From NCBI RefSeq assembly GCF_003018255.1, contig NZ_CP027440.1: 64,000 nucleotides of DNA, one strand, 5' to 3'. Position 1 is the first letter of the stretch. Every line of letters starts with the position of its first letter. Positions 34,650 to 35,734 of this stretch are shown in pieces. This DNA comes from Escherichia coli (lineage in GTDB: Bacteria > Pseudomonadota > Gammaproteobacteria > Enterobacterales > Enterobacteriaceae). The notes beneath the pieces are model-generated. The model saw only the letters and a list, made by a program, of their open reading frames with translations. It had not been told where the DNA came from and searched no databases. The position numbers and the translations under genes are program-made.

Positions 34650-35363
34650 ATGGATGACAGTGCTCTGCTCAGAAACTCTTCACTTTTTGTTGCTTATATG
34701 GGCTGTCTCGGATGGGGGAGCGCTTATTTCTATGGATGGGGTACTTCATTTTACTATGGCTTTCCATGGTGGGTTGTCGGGGCTGGTGTCGATGATGTAG
34801 CACGAAGTTTGTTTTATGCTGTGACAGTTATTGTTATATTCCTTATTGGATGGGGAGTTGGTATTGTTTTCTTTTTGGGCATAAAACAAAAGCGCAATAT
34901 ACAAAATTTGAGTTTTATCCGGCTTTTTCTCGCGATATTGCTGCTTTTTATTCCACCTGTTCTGGAGTTTTCTGTAATTCATCAGCATGTTGAGCCAGAT
35001 GTACTGATTTTCTGCGTTCTTGCTGCCTTTGCAATCACGCTTTTTGTCAGGTCTGGAAGAAGACTTGTTTCAGTCAAATGTTTTTCGGAAATGTCTGTTA
35101 TTCGCCATCACCGAATTGAGTTCATGATGGCTGGGTTTATGATTTATTTCTGGGCATTCTCTCTTATTGCCGGTTGGTACAAACCACAGTTTAAGAGGGA
35201 ATATCAGGCGGTCCACTATGAGAATGTATGGTATTACATTATTGCGCGCTATGATGATCGTCTGGTGTTATCGAAATCATACAGGAGTGGGGGTAAGAAA
35301 TTCGTTATATTTAATAGCGGAAATATTAATGATTTTGAAATTAATACTGTCAGAGTACGTTAA
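34650..35363 (+). CDS. hypothetical multi-pass membrane protein
   Basis: 237 aa with 4-5 hydrophobic segments; low-GC; first gene of the late leader. Confidence 0.5.
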   Translation: MDDSALLRNSSLFVAYMGCLGWGSAYFYGWGTSFYYGFPWWVVGAGVDDVARSLFYAVTVIVIFLIGWGVGIVFFLGIKQKRNIQNLSFIRLFLAILLLFIPPVLEFSVIHQHVEPDVLIFCVLAAFAITLFVRSGRRLVSVKCFSEMSVIRHHRIEFMMAGFMIYFWAFSLIAGWYKPQFKREYQAVHYENVWYYIIARYDDRLVLSKSYRSGGKKFVIFNSGNINDFEINTVRVR

Positions 35364-35536
35364 AATTTCCTGAGTAATAAAGATTTTACTGCCCGGCATT
35401 GAGCGGCTTTTTTATGCCAGAAAAATGGTGCAGTACATAAAATGTGCAGGTGGTTATTAATACCGGTCTTTCAGCTTGCTGGCTTTTTTGACAAGAGTTA
35501 TTGGTGTGTCACGTTAACCGGAAAAGGGAAAAAGAC

Positions 35537-35734
35537 ATGCTGAAACAGCAGGATATGACAGAAACCGCCAGAGCAGTTTTTAATGAATTAAGTGCCACCG
35601 AACCGGCGACAGTCGGGGAGATTGCACAGAATACGTACCTTTCACGCGAACGCTGCCAGCTAATACTGACCCAGCTTGTTATGGCGGGTCTGGCAGACTA
35701 TCAGTTCGGTTGTTACAGACGCCTTCAGTCCTGA
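35537..35734 (+). CDS. small winged-helix-like DNA-binding protein
   Basis: 65 aa from MLKQQDMTETARAV; HTH-like ATVGEIAQNTYLSRERCQLILTQL; own terminator CCTTCAGtCCTGAAGGCTTTTTT. Confidence 0.5.
   Translation: MLKQQDMTETARAVFNELSATEPATVGEIAQNTYLSRERCQLILTQLVMAGLADYQFGCYRRLQS

Follow-up and report, generated by a model that had tools for sequence, protein, structure and literature searches.

The first two genes that follow the late terminator of a lambdoid prophage in Escherichia coli, located within a 64,000-nucleotide stretch of DNA (the window), encode a multi-pass membrane protein and a small winged-helix-like protein (wHTH). A sequence-only reading of this locus had proposed that the two constitute an Abi-type membrane effector and its regulator, in a slot that carries toxins and exclusion genes in other lambdoid phages. 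This raises the question of whether the two genes belong together at all and, if they do not, what the membrane protein might contribute to the phage or to the lysogen that carries it.

Organization of the late region downstream of Q

Upstream of the two genes lies the gene for the Q antiterminator (33725..34396, on the plus strand, as are the other genes and signals placed by coordinates below; 221-223 aa, with the RefSeq start at 33731), which we treat as context outside the cassette. Its assignment is supported by a match to phrog_304 (E 5e-105), by the record of PF06323 (Phage_antiter_Q) for an identical gene, and by the RefSeq annotation. A consensus scan of the DNA following Q revealed a putative pR'-like late promoter (34404..34432; TTGCAA-17-TATATT), both hexamers of which are kept in prophages that share this Q family (O157 loci L020 and L070, alignment A5), and RNA folding identified a tR'-like intrinsic terminator (34484..34510) with an intact ACCCG..CGGGT hairpin and a T-run (dG -15.3 kcal/mol, z -2.6). 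With Q ending at 34396, these two elements place both ORFs first after the late promoter and terminator, which is where the sequence-only reading had put them.

The terminator at 34484-34510 forms copy 1 of a 'terminator + late leader' block and aligns with the single terminator of phages lacking the membrane protein gene, here designated TfpB after its Pfam family, as well as with the terminator upstream of TfpB in an Stx2j prophage. The leader of this copy (34511..34581) shows partial conservation ahead of TfpB across prophage contexts (alignments A5 and A8): it agrees with the Stx2j prophage leader at 62/104 positions and with copy 2 of the window at 55/103. It is followed by a promoter-like motif belonging to the cassette (34582..34611), predicted to be of the extended -10 type and consisting of TTGACT and TATGTA separated by an 18-nt spacer whose last bases are TGn. 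The -35 and -10 blocks of this motif are kept in 8 of 10 contexts with a variable spacer, including an ETEC LT plasmid despite its unrelated upstream flank, while the O157 allele has a weaker -10; we infer that the motif may be used as a promoter. DNA homology between the ETEC plasmid copy and the window begins at ~34575, and at the other end homology between contexts stops ~12 nt past the TfpB stop codon.

Downstream of TfpB, the second copy of tR' (35385..35412) is degenerate, retaining the 3' arm and T-run with a mutated 5' arm (dG -6.2 kcal/mol, z +0.2), and is probably leaky; it aligns with the intact terminator of the Stx2_EH2201, phiP27, PhiR5_1, and AR_0104 prophages. The leader that follows it, upstream of the wHTH gene (35413..35536), is conserved backbone sequence, being 73-75 % identical to TfpB-less phages across the aligned block, with near-identity along the last ~70 nt, and a megablast match to Stx2 phages starts at ~35401. 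An intrinsic terminator, GCCTTCAG..CTGAAGGC with a T-run (35721..35744, hairpin 35721-35738; dG -11.1, z -2.2), overlaps the wHTH stop codon, and beyond it lies an N6/N4 DNA methyltransferase gene, the usual downstream neighbor of the wHTH gene (35885..36943; phrog_6025/67, NCBIfam methyltransferase matches, PF01555). A search of the interval 34400-35900 against Rfam recognized no RNA family.

The membrane protein and its family

The ORF at 34650..35363 begins with ATG and encodes a 237-aa protein identical to RefSeq WP_000342737.1, a TfpB/STM1630-family inner-membrane protein. In line with its earlier description as a low-GC gene for a multi-pass membrane protein, its GC content is 39.8 %, compared to a window average of 50.3 % and a value of 50.5 % in the wHTH ORF, and the protein has four strongly hydrophobic segments (residues 60-78, 92-110, 118-136, and 156-174) in addition to an uncharged aromatic/Gly-rich segment (13-40). 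An AlphaFold2 model built from 42 sequences (pLDDT 80, pTM 0.74; 24 close sequences had given pLDDT 65) displays five long helices and then, at residues 184-235, a C-terminal beta domain of five strands. Based on this model, TfpB is predicted to have five transmembrane (TM) helices, with the conserved aromatic/glycine-rich motif predicted at the outer face of the membrane, and by helix parity the C-terminal beta domain is probably periplasmic. The topology derives from helix parity together with a modest positive-inside signal, and three basic residues right after TM5 are weakly contrary to it. Between copies from different contexts dN/dS is 0.14-0.19, with purifying selection also acting on the ETEC plasmid copies, and because full-length homologues occur across genera as well, this is a real gene rather than a chance ORF.

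TfpB belongs to a family that is already catalogued without an assigned function (TfpB/STM1630; PF27470, PHROG 1521). The protein matches phrog_1521 over residues 17-237 (E 2.6e-85), PF27470 is recorded for its exact sequence and for all 104 homologues, and it shares the family architecture seen in alignments A2 and A4 and in the AlphaFold2 model, namely a length of ~230-250 aa, an aromatic/Gly-rich N-terminal motif, several TM helices, and a C-terminal beta domain. Profile searches of NCBIfam and of a Pfam-A copy that lacks PF27470 returned no match, and since the HMMs of NCBIfam release 20 do not recognize the protein, its RefSeq name, 'STM1630 family protein', could not be reproduced from them. 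A sequence-profile search of the PDB returned only an antibody chain (E 2.3). A fold search with the model found zero matches below E 0.1 among the viral proteins in BFVD, and in AFDB50 found TM-scores of up to 0.92, all to members of the family that are uncharacterised, some few under generic names. An alignment of the wider family contains zero conserved polar residues which, taken with the lack of a match in Pfam-A, NCBIfam, or the PDB, suggests that TfpB is neither an enzyme nor a transporter.

Searches for full-length homologues identified them in Enterobacteriaceae, Pasteurellaceae, and Neisseriaceae, and in Moraxella by fold comparison alone; most of the sampled taxa are animal-associated. 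The Pfam name presumably goes back to an ORF of the pilin inversion region of Moraxella. TfpB-like genes are present in 1196 of 5426 complete E. coli genomes, at up to 4 places per genome, and 459 of the 5426 carry full-length versions. They are placed after at least three Q families, and adjoin stx1 or stx2j, eltAB or STb on ETEC plasmids, and sseJ in Salmonella; they also occur on pINV. Elsewhere the gene is solitary among housekeeping genes, as in Neisseria, Gallibacterium, and Avibacterium, or lies in the isc operon of another genome, and several assemblies of Avibacterium and of Gallibacterium repeat the same housekeeping genes as immediate neighbors, away from defence genes. Roughly one in five complete E. 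coli genomes carries TfpB-like genes, which recur beside genes for Shiga toxin, heat-labile toxin, and a type III effector. A literature search under the name TfpB returned papers on chemistry, anaesthesia, and a type IV pilus ATPase and none on this family, and Salmonella locus-tag synonyms added nothing.

The only member of the family with experimental data is Salmonella STM1630. TfpB gives full-length HMM matches to this family and is 47 % identical to a Salmonella copy beside sseJ (P0069/L005), where the literature places STM1630. The two share their length, a stand-alone gene, the N-terminal signature GWGSAYFYGWG..YYGFPWW..ARSLF, and the C-terminal beta domain, but differ in location, with the window copy in a lambdoid late region and STM1630 between steB and sseJ. 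The mapped STM1630 promoter lies 176-245 nt upstream of the ATG and is not homologous to the cassette motif at 34582-34611. STM1630, described in the literature as having an unknown function, is bound by H-NS and expressed in SPI-2-inducing medium and inside macrophages; its mutants have been reported to be attenuated in calves and chickens, and its deletion altered intramacrophage replication, which was increased rather than decreased, without a growth defect (PMC6785131, S1 text). It is also co-regulated with virulence genes (PMC2639726), and a motility phenotype emerged from a high-throughput screen, the authors' follow-up of which warned generally of possibly indirect screen effects. These phenotypes are mild and partly inconsistent.

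Inheritance of the membrane protein and wHTH genes

The second gene (35537..35734) encodes a 65-aa winged-helix-like protein, a homologue of phiP27 L23 that matches phrog_331 (E 2.8e-37) and is identical to RefSeq WP_000917733.1. Starting instead from a TTG at 35501 would lengthen the protein to 77 aa, but in other genera its homologues begin at the ATG used here. The ORF and its own terminator were both confirmed, with the fold label coming from RefSeq names of homologues ('TrmB family' or 'DprA-like winged helix') and from weak Pfam matches over residues 6-55 (TrmB, i-Evalue 6.9e-4, 19.9 bits; HTH_24, 3e-3; MarR_2, 6e-3). NCBIfam Lrs14 scored 13.9 bits against a cutoff of 90, and a PDB profile search with the protein returned nothing significant, so that a solved relative was not found by sequence. 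While it resembles TrmB/MarR-type proteins over this segment at E ~1e-3, the 65-aa protein differs from them in having no ligand or dimerisation domain, and its DNA binding is a prediction.

If the membrane protein were an effector controlled by the adjacent winged-helix regulator, the two genes would be expected to form a functional module, and the arrangement in the window is at first sight consistent with this. The genes are adjacent and 174 nt apart, terminators at 34484-34510 and 35721-35744 bound both, the degeneracy of the intervening terminator means that they may be co-transcribed, and they are adjacent in 178 genomes. Among 71 IMG/VR loci, the wHTH gene follows TfpB in all 30 alleles examined with >92 % identity. 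However, it does so in only 6 of 20 intermediate alleles and in 0 of 21 below 80 % identity. Likewise, the 178 genomes with adjacent genes stand against 459 with full-length TfpB and 2370 of 5426 complete E. coli genomes with the wHTH gene, which is about five times commoner than TfpB and usually lies directly after Q, in a wHTH-methyltransferase order that recurs in related prophages. In all of the contexts examined outside prophages (plasmids, pINV, Salmonella, Pasteurellaceae, and Neisseria), TfpB is without it.

The wHTH protein, for its part, is 81-94 % identical at the amino acid level across Escherichia, Salmonella, Klebsiella, Citrobacter, Buttiauxella, and Pantoea, whatever the upstream cargo, and its leader is sequence common to TfpB-less phages. 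A search of TfpB against 5027 PADLOC models gave AbiC as the best match, at the level of noise (E 0.24, 8.9 bits). The proposed effector and regulator are thus not co-inherited, and the effector has no homologue in PADLOC; the module is largely refuted by its distribution, we consider it highly improbable, and the toxin-regulator pair should not be carried forward. Instead, the wHTH gene is the normal first late gene of the prophage backbone and not a regulator of TfpB. In the late region of enterobacterial lambdoid prophages it ranks among the genes that are most frequent and best conserved.

The site between tR' and wHTH and the role of its cargo

In the usage of Hendrix and colleagues, lambdoid morons are genes added to the phage backbone, with bor, lom, and stx as examples. 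TfpB resembles them in its presence or absence between similar backbones, its deviant base composition, its site between backbone genes by a terminator, and its own predicted promoter-like site. For example, a backbone with the order DUF968-RusA-Q(273 aa)-wHTH-methyltransferase occurs without TfpB, and the same Q family is also found with it. TfpB differs from these morons in having no terminator of its own, as the hairpin that follows it here is the degenerate backbone copy of tR', and among the contexts compared no consistent terminator travels with the cassette.

Comparison of related prophages for occupancy of this slot, as the earlier reading had suggested, revealed variable cargo, with the membrane protein gene as a low-GC insert. 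Between tR' and wHTH there may be nothing, TfpB, a PD-Lambda-1-like nuclease (in phiP27), or, elsewhere, an unassigned two-gene module. The phiP27 gene, L22, lies at precisely this point and has a match to PD-Lambda-1, a defence protein (E 2e-89), which indicates that the site is able to carry defence genes; its 409-aa GIY-YIG-type product has no similarity in sequence or architecture to the membrane protein TfpB. The notion of a slot for toxins and exclusion genes holds in part: L22 is located there and an Stx2j prophage has the order Q-TfpB-tRNA-stx2j, but same-backbone Stx2 phages carry stx further downstream, after wHTH, the methyltransferase, and tRNAs. The tR'-wHTH site is a defined, alignable cargo position that would lend itself to systematic mining for defence or virulence genes.

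We see about an even chance that TfpB is a stand-alone moron, likely a lysogenic-conversion envelope protein, that was brought beside a backbone wHTH gene. The gene would be a single-gene AT-rich moron seated in the variable cargo site just after tR' and carried on the Q-dependent late transcript, perhaps with its own promoter as well, and its product would act alone, without a dedicated partner or regulator. Because the window contains two diverged copies of tR' and leader, one before each gene, we propose that the two genes were joined by recombination within the late leader, although the limited similarity between the copies (the 55/103 above) counts against this. Co-transcription through the degenerate terminator, if it occurs, would then be an accident of the junction. 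The weak step of this account is function: TfpB is most likely a lysogenic-conversion envelope protein that alters the way the lysogen deals with host-associated conditions, and less likely an abortive-infection toxin, a view for which the STM1630 data and the mostly animal-associated taxa speak. On induction, large amounts would also be produced from the Q-antiterminated late transcript. If the moron account holds, the locus is routine prophage anatomy, an accessory membrane gene of a catalogued family beside a backbone late gene.

An alternative is that TfpB, with no involvement of wHTH, is a single-gene superinfection-exclusion or abortive-infection protein that is made in the lysogen and blocks DNA entry or depolarises the membrane when another phage infects. 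Lambda RexB, P22 SieA and SieB, T4 Imm, and HK97 gp15 are inner-membrane exclusion proteins, encoded by prophage accessory genes expressed in the lysogen; some, RexB among them, depend on a partner or are located close to the immunity region. In predicted architecture TfpB is comparable, being, like these and many other exclusion proteins, a small multi-pass inner-membrane protein without a catalytic signature. Moreover, it is a mobile, AT-rich gene that is patchily distributed in E. coli, with several copies in some genomes, and the nuclease at the same site in phiP27 raises the prior for phage exclusion. A search for homology to a housekeeping transporter or a phage structural protein found neither, which leaves some room for exclusion by TfpB alone. 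On the other hand, TfpB differs from prophage exclusion proteins in lacking detectable homology to them in PADLOC or PHROGs, where its relatives are all of 'unknown function', and in occurring also in non-phage core loci. It has no structural match among the viral proteins of BFVD, its recurrent neighbors in Avibacterium and Gallibacterium lie away from defence genes, purifying selection keeps it on ETEC plasmids, and the known phenotypes of the family are host-related only. We therefore regard exclusion as unlikely, albeit the most probable of the alternatives. The broader proposal that TfpB represents a new kind of single-protein membrane-acting exclusion or Abi factor, with the post-tR' site as a general defence hotspot for TfpB, the PD-Lambda-1-like nuclease, and the two-gene module, or, in a variant, that it conditions the envelope for AB5 toxin release, seems slightly less likely again.

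That TfpB is encoded between Q and the holin, on the late transcript, also invites the idea of a Q-dependent late-phase accessory of lysis or toxin release that would modulate the envelope before holin action, and this would explain the stx and elt neighbors, since TfpB lies directly beside stx2j, stx1-like, or eltAB genes in some elements. Yet a Shiga toxin gene flanks only ~4 of 80 IMG/VR TfpB loci (three matches to the stx2A reference and a stx1-like pair in L088, recognized from ORFs), and the family is present where phage, lysis cassette, and toxin are all absent. Under SPI-2 conditions STM1630 has a promoter of its own that drives its expression, and PHROGs comparisons revealed no similarity between TfpB and holins, antiholins, or spanins. 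A late-phase accessory role is accordingly improbable. A link to LT-II prophages was considered and rejected, as the LT-IIc strain 357900 has TfpB in a prophage without a nearby toxin; LT-II has been placed after the lysozyme gene in a published description. Further downstream in the window, the site taken up by stx in the Stx2 phages of this backbone holds a TolA-like lipoprotein gene, STnc100 sRNA copies, and an AraC-like gene.

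Late-region setting of the TfpB gene

The window comes from an E. coli lineage of Shiga-toxin type and is a lambdoid prophage; the 1.5 kb around the TfpB and wHTH genes are 99.9% identical to chromosomes of strains including EH41 and O113:H21 FWSEC0010. The + strand gene order is hokD/sok, a DUF968 gene, rusA, the antiterminator gene Q, TfpB, wHTH and a DNA methyltransferase gene (35885-36943), followed by two tRNAs, genes for a TolA-like lipoprotein, a putative AraC-like protein and a sialate esterase, and the lysis genes. Q (PF06323, phrog_304) ends at 34396, and between it and TfpB lie a promoter-like element, TTGCAA-17-TATATT (34404-34432), kept in prophages that share this Q family, and the tR'-like late terminator, a strong hairpin with a T-run (34484-34510; dG -15.3 kcal/mol, z -2.6). 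The 237-aa TfpB ORF (34650-35363) has a GC content of 39.8%, compared to 50.3% for the window, and the 65-aa wHTH ORF (35537-35734) ends in a further hairpin with a T-run (35721-35744). The sequence-only reading had described the two ORFs, the low GC content, the position after Q and tR', and the wHTH terminator correctly in all details. A hokD toxin ORF with a match to the sok antisense RNA (RF01794, 117.7 bits) occupies 31548-31872, 5' of the DUF968-rusA-Q block.

DNA homology between the window and TfpB copies on enterotoxigenic E. coli (ETEC) plasmids extends from ~75 nt 5' of the TfpB ATG to ~12 nt 3' of the stop codon. Within these 75 nt, 8 of 10 contexts share conserved TTGAC(T/G) and TTTGTTATGTAA blocks separated by a variable spacer, and a TTGAC..TATGTAA motif is also found 5' of the ETEC plasmid gene. 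This pattern fits a predicted promoter with an extended -10. For the Salmonella relative STM1630, the experimentally altered -10 lies 176-245 nt 5' of the ATG and is not homologous to the window motif. The arrangement of TfpB fits the classical concept of a moron, a phage add-on gene, although its promoter is only predicted and it has no private terminator.

Cargo site between tR' and the wHTH gene

The interval from tR' to the wHTH gene is empty in some phages and holds TfpB in the window. In phiP27 (L003, 2624-3853) it encodes the 409-aa L22, annotated as a GIY-YIG nuclease, the C-terminal half of which matches the anti-phage protein PD-Lambda-1 in PADLOC (E 2e-89), indicating that the site is able to carry defence genes. 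Such a location speaks for the main rival explanation, that TfpB is a single-gene exclusion or abortive-infection protein, but TfpB matches no defence family, several assemblies of Avibacterium and Gallibacterium have the gene at the same non-defence locus, and phenotypes reported for the family are host-related. We consider this explanation unlikely. In E. coli SWYH.B349aT (L111, 400-2771, minus strand), the site carries two reverse-strand genes for a 408-aa hypothetical protein and a 382-aa 'nucleoid-associated protein', neither of which has a PADLOC match; the pair may be an uncharacterised cargo module.

A block comprising a terminator and the late leader is present in the window twice, as diverged copies. 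The first, 5' of TfpB (34476-34582), has an intact hairpin; the second, 5' of the wHTH gene (35378-35484), has lost the 5' hairpin arm (dG -6.2, z +0.2) and shares 73-75% identity with the single copy in phages devoid of TfpB. The simplest account of this duplication is recombination in the late leader between two phages, one with TfpB and the other with the wHTH gene as its first late gene. Because the terminator of the second copy is degenerate, TfpB and the wHTH gene may be co-transcribed in the window prophage.

The adjacency of the two genes tracks the TfpB allele lineage, with the wHTH gene following TfpB in 30/30 cases at >92% allele identity, 6/20 at 80-92% and 0/21 at <80%. Among 5426 complete E. 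coli genomes, the wHTH gene occurs in 2370 (>=80% coverage; up to 8 copies each), a full-length TfpB-like gene in 459 and the adjacent pair in 178, counts that are approximate and vary with BLAST coverage thresholds. TfpB and wHTH are thus not a co-inherited module, and the earlier suggestion that they form an effector-regulator pair, perhaps of Abi type, is not supported; we regard such a pair as very improbable, well below an exclusion or abortive-infection role for TfpB. The 65-aa protein has weak winged-helix matches (TrmB, 6.9e-4, and others), matches PHROG 331 (phiP27 counterpart, L23) and is 81-94% identical among six genera. In most prophages its gene lies directly after Q and is, as a rule, followed by the methyltransferase gene. 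It is already on record as a hypothetical late gene and is very common.

TfpB family, contexts and possible function

TfpB is identical to RefSeq WP_000342737.1, its exact sequence is recorded in thousands of assemblies, and one RefSeq record names it 'STM1630 family protein'. It matches PHROG 1521 (E 2.6e-85; annotated as function unknown) and has a recorded Pfam match to PF27470, 'TfpB', a name that presumably goes back to an ORF of the pilin inversion region in Moraxella bovis/lacunata; no match was returned by sequence searches of local Pfam-A, NCBIfam, PADLOC and PDB. Among 1.84 billion representative proteins, profile searching gave 72 matches, indicating a small family, and members whose source was checked belong to Enterobacteriaceae, Pasteurellaceae and Neisseriaceae, with Moraxella added by fold comparison. 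TfpB is a member of a catalogued, uncharacterised family, its layout is moron-like and the wHTH gene is common; the locus is no new kind of system. The residual value of the locus lies in a TfpB-like gene of uncharacterised function in about one-fifth of complete E. coli genomes, a well-defined cargo site after tR' and a highly conserved wHTH late gene.

A confident AlphaFold2 model (pLDDT 80, pTM 0.74; 42-sequence alignment) contains helices at residues 10-36, 47-78, 89-111, 116-138 and 155-181 and a C-terminal five-strand beta domain (184-235). The basic loops 79-88 and 139-154 are probably cytoplasmic, in which case helix parity would place the conserved aromatic/glycine motif GWGSAYFYGWG..YYGFPWW..DDVARSLF at the membrane's outer face and the C-terminal domain in the periplasm. 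No conserved polar residues were found across the wider family, which counts against an enzyme or ion-coupled transporter. Copies compared between contexts gave a dN/dS of 0.14-0.19, implying that the protein is under selection in every setting found.

Across 80 IMG/VR loci compared against three reference Q types, Q lies 211-286 bp 5' of TfpB in 66 of 79 informative cases. The genes 3' of TfpB vary (among them wHTH, a DUF3927 gene, holin, sialate esterase and stx2), as in the orders Q-TfpB-DUF3927-holin of an O157:H7 prophage and Q-TfpB-tRNA-stx2jAB of an Stx2j prophage. A role for TfpB as a lysis or toxin-release accessory is quite improbable, more so than exclusion or abortive infection. 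On an Enterobacter-like IMG/VR contig (L088, 4540-6714), an stx1-like A/B pair lies directly 5' of a TfpB allele 69% identical to that of the window, matched in score by an Enterobacter cloacae protein, and holin- and lysozyme-looking ORFs come next.

Outside phages, ETEC plasmids (L006-L011, ~3987-6714) that also encode STb carry a copy (75% amino acid identity) 0.9 kb from eltA and divergently transcribed from eltAB, which might be left over from an origin of the LT-I locus in a phage late region or could reflect simple IS-element co-mobilisation. Other copies lie on a pINV plasmid, close to spa40 and surrounded by IS elements, next to the iro cluster in UPEC 536 (a pseudogene) and next to sseJ in Salmonella; in Neisseria, Gallibacterium, Avibacterium and two further assemblies, TfpB stands alone amid housekeeping genes. 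No neighbour is conserved across contexts, suggesting that TfpB works alone. One of these assemblies, a distant genome (L104, 5001-6670), has its TfpB-family gene, together with a DUF6973 gene, inserted in the isc operon between hscB and hscA, an unusual site for an accessory gene.

Direct functional evidence for the family comes from STM1630 (47% identical to TfpB), which is described as of unknown function, is bound by H-NS, and shows expression both in SPI-2-inducing medium and within macrophages; attenuation of signature-tagged mutants has been reported in calves and chickens, and deletion in strain 4/74 increased intramacrophage replication (PMC6785131 S1 text). It is also listed among genes co-regulated with SPI-2 (PMC2639726). 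These data, the animal-associated taxa sampled, the virulence-locus neighbours, the AT-richness and the absence of a partner or catalytic signature point to TfpB being, most likely, a lysogenic-conversion envelope protein that would act alone in the inner membrane and affect fitness in the host; upon induction, prophage TfpB would also be made from the Q-dependent late transcript. We consider the anatomical and evolutionary part of this explanation highly probable and the functional part, an envelope protein with a role in host fitness, tentative and somewhat short of an even chance, while the explanation as a whole is evenly balanced.

Genes and RNAs at the stx position

At the position of stx in related Stx2 phages, 3' of the methyltransferase gene and two tRNAs, the window carries other ORFs. 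The tRNA at 36984-37059 is Met (CAU) by ARAGORN and tRNA-Ile in RefSeq, the ileZ type of Stx phages, which presumably reads Ile after lysidine modification. A 142-aa lipoprotein-like ORF (37424-37852, +) matches TolA in its C-terminal part (NCBIfam, E 3e-29 and 3e-21), and the 241-aa ORF that follows (38548-39273, +), helix-turn-helix domain-containing in RefSeq, appears AraC-like from its sequence. The stretch from the TolA-like/AraC-like genes to the sialate esterase gene carries five copies of the STnc100 sRNA family (RF02076; 119-172 bits, gathering score 47), one single (37959-38171, +) and four in tandem at ~260-270 nt spacing (39931-40910, +). A 152-nt direct repeat (36788-36939 and 38320-38471, +; 82% identity), corresponding to the 3' end of the methyltransferase gene, flanks the segment with the tRNA, the TolA-like ORF and the first STnc100 copy; its second copy is a methyltransferase pseudogene in RefSeq, and the repeat looks like another recombination scar of module exchange.
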